From: Escherichia coli
Lineage (GTDB): Bacteria; Pseudomonadota; Gammaproteobacteria; Enterobacterales; Enterobacteriaceae
Length of the DNA: 11,964 nt
Assembly (NCBI RefSeq): GCF_003334255.1
Contig: NZ_QOWU01000082.1
Reading direction: 5' to 3' (one strand)
Shown here: in pieces, positions 295 through 8,104 of the stretch
How positions within the stretch are numbered: the first letter of the stretch is position 1
Layout: each line of letters starts with the position of its first letter
Position numbers and translations under genes: made by a program
The notes under the pieces: generated by a model
Databases searched by the model: none
The model's input: the letters and a program-made list of their open reading frames with translations, nothing else
Told to the model about the DNA's origin: nothing

Positions 295-1794
295 ATGCTA
301 AATTTATTTGTTGGCCTTGATATATACACAGGGCTTTTGTTATTGCTTGCTCTGGCATTTGTGTTGTTCTACGAAGCAATCAATGGTTTTCATGACACGG
401 CGAATGCGGTGGCAGCCGTTATTTATACTCGTGCCATGCAACCACAACTTGCTGTGGTGATGGCGGCATTTTTTAACTTTTTTGGCGTGTTATTGGGCGG
501 ACTTAGCGTTGCCTATGCCATTGTCCATATGTTGCCAACCGATTTGTTGCTGAATATGGGGTCAACCCACGGCCTGGCGATGGTCTTTTCCATGCTGCTG
601 GCGGCGATTATCTGGAACCTGGGAACGTGGTTCTTCGGTTTACCGGCCTCCAGTTCGCACACCTTGATTGGTGCGATTATCGGCATCGGTTTAACCAACG
701 CGCTGTTAACCGGCTCATCGGTGATGGATGCGTTAAACCTGCGTGAAGTGACCAAAATTTTCTCCTCGCTGATTGTTTCCCCTATCGTCGGCCTGGTCAT
801 TGCGGGAGGCCTGATATTCCTGCTGCGACGCTACTGGAGCGGGACGAAAAAGCGTGACCGTATTCACCGCATTCCGGAAGATCGCAAAAAGAAAAAAGGC
901 AAACGTAAACCGCCATTCTGGACGCGTATTGCGCTGATTGTTTCCGCTGCGGGCGTGGCGTTTTCGCACGGCGCGAACGACGGACAAAAAGGGATCGGCC
1001 TGGTAATGCTGGTACTGGTGGGGATTGCCCCTGCTGGCTTCGTCGTCAATATGAATGCGTCCGGCTATGAAATTACCCGTACCCGCGATGCCGTTACCAA
1101 CTTCGAACACTACCTGCAACAGCATCCTGAACTGCCGCAGAAGTTGATTGCGATGGAACCTCCATTGCCTGCAGCATCGACTGATGGCACGCAAGTAACA
1201 GAGTTTCACTGTCATCCGGCAAATACCTTTGATGCTATTGCGCGCGTTAAAACGATGCTGCCAGGCAATATGGAAAGTTACGAGCCGTTAAGCGTGAGTC
1301 AGCGCAGCCAGCTGCGCCGCATTATGCTGTGCATCTCTGATACCTCCGCGAAGCTAGCGAAACTGCCAGGCGTCAGTAAAGAAGACCAGAACCTGCTGAA
1401 AAAACTTCGCAGCGATATGTTAAGCACCATTGAGTACGCTCCGGTGTGGATCATCATGGCGGTAGCACTGGCGCTCGGCATTGGCACCATGATTGGCTGG
1501 CGTCGTGTAGCGATGACCATCGGTGAGAAGATTGGTAAGCGCGGCATGACGTATGCGCAAGGCATGGCGGCACAAATGACGGCGGCAGTGTCTATCGGTC
1601 TTGCCAGTTATATTGGGATGCCCGTCTCCACAACACACGTCCTCTCGTCTGCAGTTGCAGGGACGATGGTGGTGGACGGCGGTGGGTTACAGCGTAAAAC
1701 GGTAACCAGCATCCTGATGGCGTGGGTATTTACTTTACCGGCGGCAATTTTTCTTTCTGGTGGGCTGTACTGGATAGCATTGCAGTTGATTTAA
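295..1794 (+). CDS. pitB: Low-affinity inorganic phosphate transporter, PiT family (PitA/PitB paralog; pitB inferred from the neighbouring yghT/S/R/Q-like genes)
   Basis: 499-aa ORF with ATG start and TAA stop. The translation is near-collinear with E. coli PitA as I recall it (MLxLFxGLD...[18 protein letters not shown]...[12 protein letters not shown]...[15 protein letters not shown]) and has a lysine-rich cytoplasmic loop ([13 protein letters not shown]). A rho-independent terminator follows. Confidence 0.9.
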
Positions 1795-1842: not shown

Positions 1843-2535
1843 CTAGTGATAACCACGCGCGGTCATAAAATCCGTAATCGCTTTTTCTGCATCAACCAAC
1901 ACCTGTTCCAGTGGCTGATTGGCATCGATATCAACCAGTTGTGCACCACCAAAGGTTAACTGTGGCGTTATGGCAATCTTCCTCGCCAGCGATTCCCGTT
2001 TATGGTCGGGTTTACGTGCACAGGCAACTTCAAGGTCAACATTGAGTTTGATGACCAGATCAGGCTTATGGCTCGCCATCCAGTGAAACGCTTTACGTTC
2101 CTGGCTTGCCAGCCATGAGACAAAACGACCACCTTCAACGTTAGGTGGGAACACCGTACCATCGTAAGCGCCAGGAATTTGGTCCTGAGGATAACGGTCG
2201 GTTAGAACAATTAACCCGCGACGACGACAGGCAAGCATATGACGAAAGCGCAGTAAGCGACGGGCGACAAACGCTGTAATTACCAGCGCCGGAACTGGTC
2301 CAGGCAATTTTTTTGCTGTTTTCACCTGATTTCGTTCAATTGTTTTATGTAAGGATTTTCCCATCAACGGTAATTTTGTCACTGCACGACCGACATTTCC
2401 GGCCTGTTTTCCTAAATGAACTCTTTCGGCAGCACCATATTTTTCGACAACGGTAATAAGATGTTCACACACCGTTGACTTGCCTGAACCATCGCTACCA
2501 ATAACGGCAATTAATGGAGGTGTTATTGACTGCAT
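1843..2535 (-). CDS. yghT: Thymidylate-kinase-like P-loop NTPase / putative ATP-binding kinase (YghT-like)
   Basis: 230-aa ORF with ATG start and AAGGA Shine-Dalgarno 8 nt upstream; TAG stop. Walker [17 protein letters not shown] motif, and ARKPDH / TPQLTF motifs shared with the two paralogs downstream. Confidence 0.85.
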
Positions 2536-2708
2536 GAATATATCCTTTAATTTAAATATCCATTAAAAATATTTATTTGGTTAATATGTTTTTATGAAAG
2601 CGTAATTCAGGTCAATGTCACAATTAACCATTGTCACAATAAGGTTGAACGGATATTCTGAGCACGGACCACGTAATATTCAATACATTATTTACTGCCG
2701 GGTTTTTC
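2536..2708. promoter_or_regulatory. AT-rich divergent intergenic region between yghT (minus) and yghS (plus); holds candidate promoters and a direct-repeat operator candidate
   Basis: 173-bp AT-rich spacer between divergently oriented starts. Direct repeat TGTCACAAT at 2616-2624 and 2632-2640; the second copy overlaps a possible -35 TTGTCA (2631-2636) with a -10-like TATTCT (2654-2659). Confidence 0.4.
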
Positions 2709-3422
2709 GTGAATCAACGTAATATGTCAATAATTAATTCCACGCCAGTGCGTGTTATTGCCATTGTAGGATGTGATGGTTCAGGTAAATCGACCCTCAC
2801 GGCAAGCCTGGTAAATGAACTGGCAGCAAGAATGCCAACAGAACACATTTATCTCGGGCAATCGTCCGGGCGAATTGGCGAATGGATTTCACAGCTCCCT
2901 GTTATTGGCGCACCTTTTGGGCGTTATCTGCGAAGTAAAGCGGCACATGTGCACGAAAAGCCCTCAACACCGCCTGGCAATATTACTGCACTGGTTATCT
3001 ATCTGCTTTCCTGCTGGCGGGCGTACAAGTTTCGCAAAATGTTGTGTAAAAGCCAGCAAGGCTTTCTGCTCATCACCGACCGCTACCCGCAGGTTGAAGT
3101 GCCGGGGTTTCGCTTTGATGGCCCGCAATTGGCAAAAACCACGGGCGGTAACGGTTGGATAAAAATGTTAAGGCAGCGCGAGCTGAAGCTGTACCAATGG
3201 ATGGCATCTTATTTGCCCGTATTGTTGATTCGTCTTGGCATTGATGAACAAACCGCGTTTGCGCGTAAACCTGACCACCAACTGGCAGCGTTACAGGAAA
3301 AAATCGCCGTTACGCCGCAACTGACATTCAATGGCGCAAAGATCCTTGAACTGGATGGGCGACACCCCGCCGATGAAATTCTGCAAGCGTCACTACGCGC
3401 AATTCACGCCGCGCTTTCCTGA
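2709..3422 (+). CDS. yghS: Thymidylate-kinase-like P-loop NTPase / putative ATP-binding kinase (YghS-like)
   Basis: 237-aa ORF from the GTG at 2709; an in-frame ATG at 2724 is an alternative start, and neither has a strong Shine-Dalgarno. Walker A IVGCDGSGKST, DRYPQ, ARKPDH, TPQLTF. TGA stop at 3420-3422. Confidence 0.82.
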   Translation: MNQRNMSIINSTPVRVIAIVGCDGSGKSTLTASLVNELAARMPTEHIYLGQSSGRIGEWISQLPVIGAPFGRYLRSKAAHVHEKPSTPPGNITALVIYLLSCWRAYKFRKMLCKSQQGFLLITDRYPQVEVPGFRFDGPQLAKTTGGNGWIKMLRQRELKLYQWMASYLPVLLIRLGIDEQTAFARKPDHQLAALQEKIAVTPQLTFNGAKILELDGRHPADEILQASLRAIHAALS

Positions 3423-3453
3423 TCACCAAAATGGATAGGGGATGATTTAACGA

Positions 3454-4212
3454 ATGGATGCACTACAAACTCAAACTGTTAATAGTACAACCGCGCCGCA
3501 GCCCAACTACATTCCGGGGCTGATTGCGGTGGTCGGGTGTGATGGCACCGGTAAATCCACACTGACCACCGACCTGGTGAAATCGCTGCAACAACACTGG
3601 CAAACCGAGCGGCGCTATCTGGGGCTGCTCTCCGGCGAAGACGGCGACAAAATCAAACGATTGCCGTTGGTTGGCGTCTGGCTGGAACGGCGACTGGCGG
3701 CCAAATCCTCGAAAACCCAAAGCATGAAAACCAAATCTCCGGCGCTATGGGCGGCGGTGATTATGTACTGCTTCTCGCTGCGAAGAATGGCGAATCTACG
3801 CAAGGTTCAGCGACTGGCGCAAAGTGGCGTTCTGGTGGTCAGCGATCGCTTCCCGCAGGCTGAAATTTCGGGCTTTTATTATGATGGACCGGGGATTGGC
3901 GTCGAACGTGCGACCGGGAAAATCAGCATGTTTCTGGCGCAGCGCGAACGGCGTTTATACCAACAAATGGCGCAATATCGCCCGGAATTAATTATTCGCC
4001 TGGGCATTGATATTGAGACTGCCATCTCCCGCAAGCCTGACCATGACTATGCCGAGCTGCAGGACAAAATCGGTGTCATGTCGAAGATTGGCTATAACGG
4101 CACAAAAATTCTTGAGATTGATTCCAGAGCGCCCTACAGCGAAGTGCTGGAACAGGCACAGAAGGCGGTTTCTCTGGTTGCCATCGTTTCTGACCGCCGA
4201 AGTTTAACTTAA
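3454..4212 (+). CDS. yghR: Thymidylate-kinase-like P-loop NTPase / putative ATP-binding kinase (YghR-like)
   Basis: 252-aa ORF with ATG start and AGGGGA about 12 nt upstream. Walker A VVGCDGTGKST, DRFPQ, SRKPDH. Paralogous to the two preceding kinase-like ORFs. Confidence 0.87.
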   Translation: MDALQTQTVNSTTAPQPNYIPGLIAVVGCDGTGKSTLTTDLVKSLQQHWQTERRYLGLLSGEDGDKIKRLPLVGVWLERRLAAKSSKTQSMKTKSPALWAAVIMYCFSLRRMANLRKVQRLAQSGVLVVSDRFPQAEISGFYYDGPGIGVERATGKISMFLAQRERRLYQQMAQYRPELIIRLGIDIETAISRKPDHDYAELQDKIGVMSKIGYNGTKILEIDSRAPYSEVLEQAQKAVSLVAIVSDRRSLT

Positions 4213-4257
4213 GGCTGGCGGGATACTTTTTACTATCAACGATAAGGTCAGGCTGAA

Positions 4258-5607
4258 TTGGCGGGTTTTAACATCAAACATTGGTTTGCAGATGGCGCGT
4301 TTCGCACCATTATTCGCAATAGCGCCTGGTTAGGCTCCAGTAATGTCGTGAGCGCCTTGCTGGGTCTGTTGGCGCTCTCGTGTGCCGGTAAAGGGATGAC
4401 GCCCGCCATGTTTGGCGTACTGGTGATTGTGCAATCGTACGCCAAGTCGATCAGCGATTTTATTAAGTTTCAGACATGGCAACTGGTGGTTCAGTACGGA
4501 ACACCAGCATTAACCAACAATAATCCGCAGCAATTCCGCAATGTCGTCTCATTTTCCTTCTCGCTGGATATCGTCAGCGGCGCGGTGGCGATTGTCGGTG
4601 GCATTGCCTTACTGCCATTCCTTTCCCATTCATTAGGTCTGGATGACCAAAGTTTTTGGCTGGCAGCGCTCTATTGCACGCTCATTCCTTCAATGGCTTC
4701 CTCCACGCCGACCGGCATTCTGCGTGCGGTAGATCGCTTCGATTTAATTGCTGTACAGCAGGCGACGAAACCTTTTCTGCGCGCAGCGGGGAGCGTCGTA
4801 GCCTGGTATTTTGACTTTGGTTTTGCGGGTTTTGTTATTGCCTGGTACGTGTCGAATCTGGTTGGCGGCACCATGTACTGGTGGTTTGCCGCGCGCGAAT
4901 TACGCCGCCGAAATATCCATAACGCCTTCAAATTGAATCTGTTTGAGTCTGCCCGATACATTAAAGGCGCGTGGAGTTTTGTCTGGTCAACCAACATTGC
5001 CCACTCCATCTGGTCGGCGCGTAACTCGTGCAGCACAGTGTTGGTGGGGATCGTGTTAGGACCCGCTGCCGCCGGGTTATTTAAAATCGCCATGACATTC
5101 TTCGACGCCGCCGGAACGCCAGCGGGTTTGCTGGGTAAAAGTTTTTACCCAGAGGTGATGCGTTTAGATCCGCGCACCACCAGACCGTGGTTGTTAGGTG
5201 TGAAGTCCGGTTTACTGGCGGGCGGAATCGGTATTCTGGTGGCGCTCGCGGTGTTGATCGTCGGCAAGCCGCTCATTTCGCTGGTGTTTGGCGTTAAGTA
5301 TCTCGAAGCGTATGACCTGATTCAGGTGATGCTGGGCGCAATTGTGATTTCGATGCTGGGCTTCCCTCAGGAGTCATTGCTATTGATGGCGGGAAAACAG
5401 CGCGCTTTTCTCGTGGCGCAAACCATCGCCTCAATCGGCTACATCGTATTGCTGTTCATGTTCTGTCATCTGTTTGGTGTGCTGGGAGCAGCGTTTGCTT
5501 ACTTCGGTGGGCAATGTCTGGACGTGGCGCTCTCGTTAATTCCAACCTTAAAGGCATTTTTTCAGCGCCATTCCTTGCTTTATAACGCAGCCGGAGAGAA
5601 ATCCTGA
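4258..5607 (+). CDS. yghQ: MOP-superfamily (Wzx/polysaccharide-biosynthesis-type) inner-membrane flippase-like protein (YghQ-like)
   Basis: 449-aa ORF, hydrophobic throughout with many predicted TM helices. The only start that keeps the first TM segment is the TTG at 4258 (AAGG 10 nt upstream; in-frame TAA at 4243-4245; first in-frame ATG not until codon 47). The stop overlaps the next start (TGATG). Confidence 0.8.
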   Translation: MAGFNIKHWFADGAFRTIIRNSAWLGSSNVVSALLGLLALSCAGKGMTPAMFGVLVIVQSYAKSISDFIKFQTWQLVVQYGTPALTNNNPQQFRNVVSFSFSLDIVSGAVAIVGGIALLPFLSHSLGLDDQSFWLAALYCTLIPSMASSTPTGILRAVDRFDLIAVQQATKPFLRAAGSVVAWYFDFGFAGFVIAWYVSNLVGGTMYWWFAARELRRRNIHNAFKLNLFESARYIKGAWSFVWSTNIAHSIWSARNSCSTVLVGIVLGPAAAGLFKIAMTFFDAAGTPAGLLGKSFYPEVMRLDPRTTRPWLLGVKSGLLAGGIGILVALAVLIVGKPLISLVFGVKYLEAYDLIQVMLGAIVISMLGFPQESLLLMAGKQRAFLVAQTIASIGYIVLLFMFCHLFGVLGAAFAYFGGQCLDVALSLIPTLKAFFQRHSLLYNAAGEKS

Positions 5608-6431
5608 TGATGAGAAAATATTTCCCGCTTGAGGCGAGCGAGCGTCTATTTGTTGCGATTGAAGAAGATGATGTCGTTGATGCACAGGTTAGTTTGCCGC
5701 CGACTATTGCACTAAGTTGTACCACCGAAATCATTCATGATAATTACGCGTTATGCCTGCAATTCTGGCTCAATGGCGTTGATCGTCAGGAGTTACTGCG
5801 TTTAGTTCGCAAACAAGCCAAAGGCGATGAGCTGACTGCTGATGAGCGCAAACAATTTAAATACATGCGAGCGCGCTACAAGCACCTGCGTTTTGCGCAA
5901 CGGCTGTATTTAAAGAAGCATCAGGCCGGATTTTTATTCGGCAAAACGACCGTTTTTCTGGGGCGTTTTCAGGACGGCTTTCGTAACGGTAAGAAAAATA
6001 TTGTGTCGTATTACGGCAACCTGTTACGGATTTATTTAAGCTCTCCGGTCTGGTCGTTGGTGAACTATTCATTACGCCATAGCCAGTTAGAAAGCGTAAG
6101 CAGTTTTATTGCCTATCGGCAAAAGCAAATGCATACCCTGAAAGAGATTATTGCCAAACCGCGACTAACCGGTAGGGAATTTCATGATGTGCGAAAAATC
6201 ATCAGCCAGCAGGTTTCTTATTACGACACCTTAAGATCGCTTGATCCTGAAAATAAAGAGGCGTTACAGATATCCCGCTTCCTCGCCGCCATTAATGGCC
6301 TGATGGGAGATAAACACGACGACATGGTGGCGGATGATATGGAAAACCGCCAGTCGTATGATGCACCGGTGGCGCTGGATAGCGATATTCGTCAGCGCTT
6401 AGAGCTGCTGATTTCGCGTTTTCCGCTATAG
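5607..6431 (+). CDS. Hypothetical soluble protein, basic and probably helical; no recognisable catalytic motif
   Basis: 274-aa ORF starting with tandem ATG ATG, GGAGAG Shine-Dalgarno 8 nt upstream, and a 1-nt overlap with the yghQ stop. No signal peptide or TM segment seen. Confidence 0.75.
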   Translation: MMRKYFPLEASERLFVAIEEDDVVDAQVSLPPTIALSCTTEIIHDNYALCLQFWLNGVDRQELLRLVRKQAKGDELTADERKQFKYMRARYKHLRFAQRLYLKKHQAGFLFGKTTVFLGRFQDGFRNGKKNIVSYYGNLLRIYLSSPVWSLVNYSLRHSQLESVSSFIAYRQKQMHTLKEIIAKPRLTGREFHDVRKIISQQVSYYDTLRSLDPENKEALQISRFLAAINGLMGDKHDDMVADDMENRQSYDAPVALDSDIRQRLELLISRFPL

Positions 6432-6439
6432 CCGGAGCA

Positions 6440-7003
6440 ATGATGTCATCTCGTTTGATTATTGCGTTGATTATCATGCTCTTAGCCCCGGGTGTGCAGG
6501 CACACAATTTCGTCACTGGCAAAACGGTTACCCCTGTTTATATCCAGGAAGGCGGCGAGCTGCTTCTGAATAGCGACGACGAAATTCACTACCAAAAGTG
6601 GAACAGCACACAATTAGCGGGAAAAGTCCGCATTATTCAGTATATCGCCGGGCGTAAGTCGGCGAAGAAAAAGAACTCACTGTTAATTAAAGCGGTTGAA
6701 GCGGCAAACTTTCCGCAGGATCGTTTTCAGCCCACCACCATTGTGAACACCGATGATGCCATCTTTGGTACTGGCTATTTTGTTGTTGGCAAAATCGAAA
6801 AAAATAAACGCCGCTATCCGTGGGCGCAATTCGTTATTGACGGCAATGGACAGGGACGCGTTGCCTGGCGCTTGCCGGAGCAGAGTTCAACCATTCTGGT
6901 GCTGAATAAAGCCGGGCAAATTCAGTGGGCAAAGGACGGCAGCCTGACGCCGGAAGAGGTAGATCATGTCATTGCGTTGGCGCAGAAACTGATCAATGAA
7001 TAA
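6440..7003 (+). CDS. Secreted/periplasmic protein of unknown function with a Sec signal peptide
   Basis: 187-aa ORF. N-terminus MMSSRLIIALIIMLLAPGVQA|HN has an n-region, hydrophobic core and an AxA-type cleavage site. GGAG lies 2 nt before the first ATG (6440) and 5 nt before the second (6443), so the true start may be 6443. Confidence 0.8.
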   Translation: MMSSRLIIALIIMLLAPGVQAHNFVTGKTVTPVYIQEGGELLLNSDDEIHYQKWNSTQLAGKVRIIQYIAGRKSAKKKNSLLIKAVEAANFPQDRFQPTTIVNTDDAIFGTGYFVVGKIEKNKRRYPWAQFVIDGNGQGRVAWRLPEQSSTILVLNKAGQIQWAKDGSLTPEEVDHVIALAQKLINE

Positions 7004-7033
7004 AAAACTCAAAGGATTGAGGGCGTTAGTGAG

Positions 7034-8104
7034 ATGAAGCTGGTTGAACACTACATCATGCGTGGTACGCGCCGTCTGGTGCTGATTATCGTCGGTTTTC
7101 TGATCTTTATTTTCGCCAGCTACTCCGCACAGCGTTATCTGACCGAAGCGGCAAATGGGACATTAGCTCTTGATGTTGTGCTGGATATCGTTTTCTACAA
7201 AGTACTGATTGCACTGGAGATGTTGTTACCTGTTGGTCTGTATGTGTCAGTTGGCGTGACGCTAGGGCAGATGTATACCGACTCGGAAATTACCGCTATC
7301 TCTGCGGCGGGGGGCAGTCCGGGACGCTTGTACAAAGCCGTTCTTTATCTGGCGATACCGCTAAGTATTTTTGTCACCCTTCTGTCGATGTATGGTCGTC
7401 CGTGGGCTTATGCGCAGATTTATCAACTGGAGCAGCAGTCGCAGTCGGAGCTGGATGTTCGCCAGTTGCGGGCAAAGAAATTTAACACTAACGATAACGG
7501 ACGAATGATCCTTTCGCAGACGGTTGATCAGGATAATAATCGCCTGACTGACGCGCTGATTTATACTTCTACTGCCAATCGAACCCGCATTTTCCGCGCC
7601 CGTTCGGTTGATGTGGTTGACCCATCACCCGAGAAACCGACCGTTATGTTGCACAACGGCACTGCCTATCTTATCGATCATCAGGGGCGTGATGACAACG
7701 AACAGATCTACCGTAATCTGCAATTACATCTGAATCCGCTGGATCAAAGCCCTAACGTCAAACGCAAAGCGAAATCGGTCACGGAGCTGGCGCGCTCCGT
7801 CTTTCCAGCCGATCATGCCGAACTGCAATGGCGGCAAAGCCGTGGCCTGACCGCATTGTTGATGGCGCTGCTGGCCATTTCATTAAGTCGGGTAAAACCG
7901 CGGCAAGGGCGATTTTCAACGTTATTGCCACTGACGTTGCTGTTTATTGCCATTTTTTATGGCGGTGACGTCTGCCGTACGCTGGTGGCTAACGGCGCGA
8001 TTCCCCTCATTCCTGGTTTGTGGTTAGTACCCGGACTCATGCTAATGGGCCTGCTGATGCTGGTCGCACGCGACTTCTCTTTGCTGCAGAAATTTTCCCG
8101 ATGA
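7034..8104 (+). CDS. LptF/LptG-family (YjgP/YjgQ) permease, paralog 1
   Basis: 356-aa ORF. N-terminus LVEHYIMRG followed by a TM helix, family-typical SEITAISAAGGSP motif after the third hydrophobic segment, a hydrophilic middle domain and C-terminal TM helices. This matches LptF/LptG architecture as I recall it. Confidence 0.85.
   Translation: MKLVEHYIMRGTRRLVLIIVGFLIFIFASYSAQRYLTEAANGTLALDVVLDIVFYKVLIALEMLLPVGLYVSVGVTLGQMYTDSEITAISAAGGSPGRLYKAVLYLAIPLSIFVTLLSMYGRPWAYAQIYQLEQQSQSELDVRQLRAKKFNTNDNGRMILSQTVDQDNNRLTDALIYTSTANRTRIFRARSVDVVDPSPEKPTVMLHNGTAYLIDHQGRDDNEQIYRNLQLHLNPLDQSPNVKRKAKSVTELARSVFPADHAELQWRQSRGLTALLMALLAISLSRVKPRQGRFSTLLPLTLLFIAIFYGGDVCRTLVANGAIPLIPGLWLVPGLMLMGLLMLVARDFSLLQKFSR

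Follow-up and report, generated by a model that had tools for sequence, protein, structure and literature searches.

The window, by which we mean the whole stretch of 11,964 nucleotides of Escherichia coli DNA analysed here, contains a divergent pair of paralogous genes, yghT (1843-2535, minus strand) and yghS (2709-3422, plus strand), separated by a spacer of 173 nt (2536-2708) with a G+C content of 29.5%. Gene order and the annotation of yghT and yghS were read from NZ_CP025842, an E. coli chromosome that is 100% identical to the window. The product of yghS is P-loop kinase-like; its gene begins with GTG and is the first of a long operon in which it is followed by yghR, a MOP-flippase gene (full-length yghQ), a hypothetical gene, a YtfJ-family gene and LptF- and LptG-like genes. 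Convergent with this operon lie genes for a serine palmitoyltransferase, an ACP, an SDR reductase and a fatty acyl-AMP ligase, and then yghO. The phosphate transporter gene pitB (295-1794, plus strand) adjoins yghT on its other side. Taken together, the window from 1843 to 11964 and the sequence onward look like a sphingolipid or aminolipid synthesis-and-export system. The 'dTMP kinase' names attached to the three paralogous P-loop kinases YghT, YghS and YghR correspond to scores far under the family cut-offs. In K-12 the spacer is identical (NC_000913.3 3133958-3134130), and the locus is truncated beyond yghQ by an IS5 element, the middle of the island having been lost.

The distribution of the locus is patchy, which suggests horizontal transfer. 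The divergent yghT/yghS pair is found in Escherichia clades, E. albertii, Hafnia, Shimwellia, Pseudocitrobacter, Citrobacter amalonaticus, Pluralibacter, Serratia, Erwinia and Kosakonia and, more distantly, in beta- and gammaproteobacterial MAGs; a metagenome scan with the conserved 16-mer at the yghS start returned chiefly chance matches and only three true orthologues. Within E. coli, a 461-nt probe around the repeat described below has matches in 4707 of 5426 complete genomes, at 95-100% identity. Some E. coli genomes carry recombinant paralogues, either a gene of 240-245 amino acids in place of yghS and yghR, with yghR missing, or a yghS-like gene of 241 amino acids directly adjoining pitB. 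Linkage of pitB to yghT is present in Escherichia, Hafnia, Pseudocitrobacter and Citrobacter amalonaticus and absent from Shimwellia, Serratia, Kosakonia, Pluralibacter and Erwinia; because the linkage is limited to some genera, pitB, a second phosphate transporter, may have travelled with the island in one sub-lineage.

An initial annotation of this DNA had singled out a 9-nt direct repeat in the regulatory spacer between the two genes, and both the repeat and its place are as described there. The sequence TGTCACAAT occurs exactly, on the plus strand, at 2616-2624 (copy 1) and 2632-2640 (copy 2), 16 nt from start to start, and the short inverted repeat said to overlap it, ACAAT (2620-2624) with ATTGT (2630-2634), is likewise present. 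If one mismatch is allowed, the direct repeat grows to 12 nt (CAaTGTCACAAT, 2613-2624, and CAtTGTCACAAT, 2629-2640). Copy 2 forms a perfect 5-1-5 palindrome, ATTGT-C-ACAAT, and copy 1 matches this palindrome at 4/5 positions per arm, the inverted repeat being nothing other than the inner arms of the two palindromes. Read from the sequence, the copies belong to two adjoining 16-nt units, CAATGTCACAATTAAC and CATTGTCACAATAAGG (2613-2644), that are identical at 12/16 positions and may be the relic of a tandem duplication; Tandem Repeats Finder did not call them.

By itself, the repeat is only marginally beyond what chance would produce, because shuffled spacers yield similar repeats and the number of occurrences in the window is at expectation; any significance would have to come from conservation. 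When the spacer was shuffled 5000 times with its dinucleotides preserved, an exact direct repeat of at least 9 nt arose in 16% of the shuffles if any distance was allowed and in 3.7% if the copies had to lie within 30 nt, and TGTCACAAT with at most one mismatch is found 3 times in the window, with 3.2 occurrences expected. The spacer also holds two more repeats of similar quality, at 2540/2556 and 2671/2717. The former is a second direct repeat with a 16-nt period (2540-2566; ATATCCTTTAA and ATATCCATTAA), the first copy of which overlaps the yghT ribosome-binding site; an inverted partner of it, TTGAACGGATATT, lies at 2645-2657, adjoining the predicted yghS -10 box. This second repeat is poorly conserved beyond Escherichia. 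The latter is an exact 9-nt repeat, ACGTAATAT (2671-2679 and 2717-2725), extending over about 15 nt with one indel, whose second copy sits in the first codons of yghS just 5' of an ATG (2724) that is in frame; other genera have different codons following the GTG. A further candidate structure, an 8-nt inverted repeat (TGGTTAAT at 2578 and ATTAACCA at 2623), was rejected since E. albertii alters both arms without compensation, and an Rfam search for structured RNA returned nothing near threshold.

One might then imagine that the repeat is a by-product of chance or duplication with no role at all, and that whatever conservation the spacer shows reflects only recent ancestry or transfer of the island. 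The weak outcome of the shuffles and the presence of other repeats of similar quality in the same spacer are what this explanation would lead us to expect, as are the patchy distribution of the locus and the existence of one natural strain, described below, that lacks one of the copies. Two observations count against it. First, the two hexamers that we describe below as promoter elements, and the distance between them, are kept in lineages where YghS is only 71-75% identical and nearby spacer sequence has diverged to 45-65% identity. Second, the block that contains the repeats is far less polymorphic within E. coli than the adjoining 60 nt. We therefore regard an origin without function as quite unlikely.

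The first of these observations comes from an alignment of about 125 nt upstream of yghS in 12 lineages (11 orthologous spacers compared with E. coli, from nine other genera), comprising Escherichia clades, E. albertii, two Hafnia, Shimwellia, Pseudocitrobacter, Citrobacter amalonaticus, Pluralibacter, Serratia, Erwinia and Kosakonia. Identity to E. coli was calculated by segment for the six alignable non-coli lineages; in these, YghS shares 71-89% identity with the E. coli protein. Segment identity is 0.45 in the 20 nt upstream of copy 1, 0.69 in copy 1, 0.71 in the linker between the copies and 0.87 in copy 2. Within and around copy 2 the hexamer TTGTCA (2631-2636) reaches 1.00, as does the slightly longer ATTGTCAC (2630-2637) in which the 5' part of copy 2 lies; identity then falls to 0.65, rises again to 0.97 over a second hexamer, TATTCT (2654-2659), and drops to 0.55 in the 14 nt that follow. 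TTGTCA is unchanged in Escherichia, E. albertii, two Hafnia, Shimwellia, Pseudocitrobacter and Citrobacter amalonaticus. Five of these six lineages have a gap of 17 nt between the hexamers, and Shimwellia has one of 16; across the ten other lineages that align there the gap is 16-17 nt, with 16 in Shimwellia and Pluralibacter. Conservation is also evident at the gene start itself, the GTG of yghS sitting in the conserved block TTTTTCGTGA(A/G)TCAAC.

The initial annotation had asked whether the repeat is conserved in related genomes, and here the outcome is divided: copy 2 is kept, ATTGTCAC being invariant, and the repeat as such is not. When the two 9-mers are compared within the same genome, they agree at 9/9 positions in E. 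coli and Escherichia sp. E1V33 and at 8/9 in E. albertii. Agreement decays to 6/9 in one of the two Hafnia and to 5/9 in the other, a value shared by Shimwellia and Pseudocitrobacter, and Citrobacter is lowest with 4/9, so that the copies do not share one consensus across species. Because of this decay from 9/9 to 4/9, the sequences indicate that the copies are not maintained as two equivalent sites and that only in E. coli and its closest clades do they agree over all 9 nt. Even within copy 2 conservation is one-sided: ATTGTCAC is constant, and the 3' AAT has become AAC, GGC or ATT in orthologues. Such a pattern fits a -35 hexamer and argues against a palindromic or otherwise symmetric operator. 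The core of copy 1, CACAATTA, is retained in Escherichia and Hafnia paralvei, and the above-background conservation of this copy (0.69 versus 0.45) is left unaccounted for if copy 2 is read as a -35 box.

Within E. coli the same block shows a striking uniformity. Positions 2606-2665, a stretch of 60 nt that covers the repeats and the predicted -10 box, are identical in 4412 of 4686 genomes, as against 2674 of 4545 for the neighbouring 60 nt on the yghT side, and the exact 32-mer that spans both copies is present in 4563 E. coli genomes. This uniformity, the above-background conservation of copy 1 and the single deletion described next fit a contribution of copy 1 to the promoter from upstream and a factor bound over the -35 box alike. 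The natural exception is strain 504838 (NZ_CP025856.1 3738191-3738627), where a clean 16-nt deletion corresponding to window positions 2616-2631 has merged the two copies into one and turned the predicted -35 box from TTGTCA into ATGTCA. The event resembles slipped-strand deletion at short direct repeats, in that precisely 16 nt were lost and one copy was left. Unlike what is seen in phase variation, the one-copy allele occurs in only 1 of 5426 complete E. coli genomes, and for this reason we do not interpret the repeat as a phase-variable switch.

What, then, is conserved here? A consensus scan of both strands between 2450 and 2800 found a single promoter-like site, TTGTCA-17-TATTCT, which matches at 9/12 positions and faces yghS. 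We refer to this predicted promoter as P1. Its -35 box (2631-2636, plus strand) agrees with TTGACA at 5/6 positions and its -10 box (2654-2659, plus strand) with TATAAT at 4/6, including the A at position 2 and the T at position 6; the -10 box ends 49 nt before the GTG of yghS. Since shuffled versions of the region contain a mean of 1.8 sites at 9/12, such a match is unremarkable alone. With an approximate sigma-70 weight matrix, P1 is the top-scoring site in E. coli, Escherichia sp. E1V33, E. albertii, the two Hafnia, Shimwellia and Citrobacter; in Pseudocitrobacter it comes second, and a weaker homologue, TTGTTA-17-TATCTT, is found in one further metagenomic lineage. P1 thereby combines a -35 box, a -10 box with both key bases, a spacing of 17 +/- 1 nt and hexamers that are conserved around a diverging spacer. 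It is chiefly the last of these that leads us to read the block as a sigma-70 promoter, because conservation peaks twice, 17 nt apart, and the sequence in between diverges freely.

We consider it reasonably probable, judging by sequence comparison, that the yghS operon has an ordinary, conserved sigma-70 promoter whose -35 box is overlapped by copy 2. TTGTCA, 17 nt and TATTCT would then drive the operon of yghS, yghR, the flippase gene and the LptF- and LptG-like genes from about position 2666 on the plus strand, 7 nt after the -10 box, leaving a leader of about 43 nt and placing copy 1 at roughly -51 to -43. This upstream copy, at a distance of 16 nt, would be a near-duplicate of the -35 region, either left over from a 16-nt tandem duplication or similar by chance because the DNA is rich in A+T, and would provide at most upstream promoter context. 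With canonical sigma-70 promoters (TTGACA-17-TATAAT) P1 shares near-consensus hexamers, the 17-nt gap and the correct orientation, toward yghS; unlike them, it has its -35 box duplicated 16 nt upstream, in a pair that is nearly fixed in E. coli. What the aligned sequences show directly is the elements, how they are spaced and how differently they are conserved, and it is from these that we infer use of P1 by RNA polymerase and the position of the start. No start-site, footprint or reporter data for yghS, and no binding data for the repeat, were found in the literature supplements examined.

The exact start in E. coli is made uncertain by a second conserved -10-like box, which belongs to the better site in Serratia, Erwinia and Kosakonia. 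This box lies in a conserved TAATAT/TACAAT block (2674-2684), about 25 nt nearer to the yghS start codon than the -10 box of P1. In Escherichia it has the form TTCAAT (2679-2684, plus strand), without the critical A at position 2, where other genera have TACAAT or TATAAT. In Serratia, Erwinia and Kosakonia the weight matrix accordingly gives TTGAAC-16-TACAAT or an equivalent as the best site. The same arrangement apparently scores best in a metagenomic relative. To judge from these sequences, there may have been promoter turnover within 2656-2684, and the stronger of two tandem promoters appears not to be the same one in every lineage.

The initial annotation had further proposed that a regulator bound at the paired repeat could control transcription in both directions. 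Across orthologues only copy 2 is maintained, and the idea of one site controlling both directions receives no support from our analysis, because the best yghT promoter candidate lies outside the repeats, at least 22 nt from copy 1, and because the minus-strand hexamers within the repeats (GTGACA, TTGTGA and TTGACC), considered as parts of a yghT promoter and rejected, have no conserved -10 partner in Escherichia. The candidate itself is a weak one. On the minus strand, a -10-like TATTTT (2566-2571) ends 30 nt before the ATG of yghT, and the corresponding -35 position (2589-2594) reads TAAAAA; we hold this candidate with low confidence because its -35 box is poor in E. coli. A TAnnnT hexamer at this distance (29-31 nt in Erwinia) is found in three sequences of the E. 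coli clade and six other lineages. In several lineages the hexamer is accompanied by an extended TG. A 5' RACE primer for yghT is given in Mendoza-Vargas et al. 2009.

An invariant 8-mer over a -35 box would be equally expected of a repressor site that overlaps it. A second scenario can be framed accordingly: the two copies might constitute a paired operator for a putative factor, each 11-nt palindrome A(A/T)TGT-C-ACAAT binding one unit, and occupancy would then occlude the -35 box of yghS and possibly influence yghT too. There is something to be said for this. Dyad symmetry is perfect in copy 2 and near-perfect in copy 1; both copies are nearly fixed in E. coli, as the counts of the 32-mer and of the deletion allele illustrate; copy 1 stands above background in Escherichia, Hafnia and Shimwellia, with the 16-nt phasing kept; and the block overlaps the -35 box, a classic position for a repressor. 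On the other hand, the palindrome arms are not symmetrically conserved and the copies do not converge on one consensus, no cognate regulator was found in the window, the promoters of the cluster show no excess of the motif, and none of the known motifs that we tried fits. Geometry is awkward as well. Half-site centres 6 nt apart are unsuited to dimeric helix-turn-helix proteins, and direct repeats recognised by OmpR/PhoB-type regulators have a period of 10-11 nt and those of LytTR-type regulators one of 21-22 nt, so that 16 nt fits neither. All told, we find a paired operator unlikely.

The motifs in question were 25 literature consensus sequences, for CRP, PhoB, FNR, Fur, ArcA, LexA, DnaA, CpxR, PhoP, IHF, CreB, CusR, LacI, DgoR, FadR, PdhR/LldR, TyrR, SlyA, MarA, OmpR, RcsB, sigma-E, sigma-54, NsrR and TorR, which were scanned over 2596-2665 and over 300 shuffles. 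None of the 25 stands out in that interval, a result that upholds the earlier remark that the repeat is no obvious CRP, Fur or Pho box. The best match of the scan was to the CreB tag (TTCAC-N6-TTCAC): TTCAG-GTCAAT-GTCAC at 2606-2621 agrees at 8/10 positions, a score equalled in 6 of 300 shuffles. This is not significant over 25 tests, and the upstream half is not conserved (Hafnia). The Pho box, CTGTCATAWAWCTGTCAY, to which PhoB binds, consists of two TGTCA repeats 11 nt apart, in 7-nt units CTGTCAT, that stand in place of the -35 box. There is a likeness here, in that a TGTCA(C) half-site is part of both copies, copy 2 is at -35 and pitB adjoins the pair; unlike in a Pho box, the gap to the -10 box is 16 nt rather than about 10. 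The best 18-mer match reaches 11/18, as do 138 of 300 shuffles, and the period is 16 nt and not 11, so that the Pho box was rejected. CRP fared no better: both copies contain TGTGA half-sites on the minus strand, reminiscent of TGTGA-N6-TCACA, but the partner half-sites are missing and the best score, 7/10, is reached in 47 of 300 shuffles.

Operators of the GntR/FadR type (TnGT-N(0-3)-ACnA; for DgoR, TTGTA-S-TACAA) are similar in form to the TTGT-C-ACAA found here, and a gene of the GntR family, glcC, lies about 13 kb from the repeat. This type was nonetheless rejected, the centre being 2 nt shorter than in DgoR and FadR sites and the right arm not conserved; the best matches to the consensus sequences are 6/11 for DgoR and 8/14 for PdhR/LldR. 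Nor do related sites recur elsewhere in the cluster. Allowing up to two mismatches, ATTGTCACAAT occurs at chance level in the window and the 18 kb downstream, including the spacer between the FAAL gene and yghO, and a search for a similar site upstream of the FAAL-spt operon or yghO gave 7 matches with 5.9 expected. Occurrences of TTGTCACAA in two Methylotenera-like loci were dismissed, as they fall inside coding sequence. Among ten proteins of the cluster no DNA-binding family was recognised, and YghO, a 'putative regulator' in the K-12 record, is without a Pfam or NCBIfam match. The readable part of the ChIP-exo supplements makes no mention of yghS or yghT. A weak FlhDC gSELEX peak has been assigned to the yghT/yghS spacer, with the predicted box inside yghT at about 2364-2407 of the window (PMC9962212).

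A third scenario involves nucleoid proteins, the block being mainly a target for silencing by H-NS and counter-silencing by SlyA, and it is compatible with the presence of a promoter. It draws on the G+C content of the spacer, 29.5%, and on published data, which list yghS as a member of the H-NS regulon and show a 3.1-fold increase when SlyA is overexpressed (PMC5797941). Because of this listing and this response, the yghS promoter is probably silenced in K-12 under laboratory conditions. The details do not favour such a role for the conserved block: H-NS binding neither needs nor would preserve an exact 8-mer that contains G and C, and the SlyA consensus is matched at only 7/12 positions, a score reached in 262 of 300 shuffles. 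That nucleoid-protein binding is the main reason for the block strikes us as very unlikely.

Returning to P1 as the reading that we prefer, its significance is first of all that the yghS operon, itself little studied, gains a predicted promoter not annotated before, and the eye-catching repeat becomes for the most part a -35 box together with a drifting near-copy. A site for a dedicated regulator is unlikely and failed every test run here; more specifically, that the two 11-nt palindromes, 16 nt apart, form the operator of a putative factor encoded elsewhere and covering the yghS -35 box is, on our assessment, distinctly unlikely. Were it true, this factor would gate a cryptic, horizontally spread lipid island with three P-loop kinases, a MOP flippase, LptF/G paralogues and a set of serine palmitoyltransferase, ACP, reductase and acyl-AMP ligase. 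The natural one-copy allele of strain 504838 offers a ready test case for the promoter block, and if the lipid island of this operon proves important, the promoter block at 2613-2684 would be the place to seek its control.
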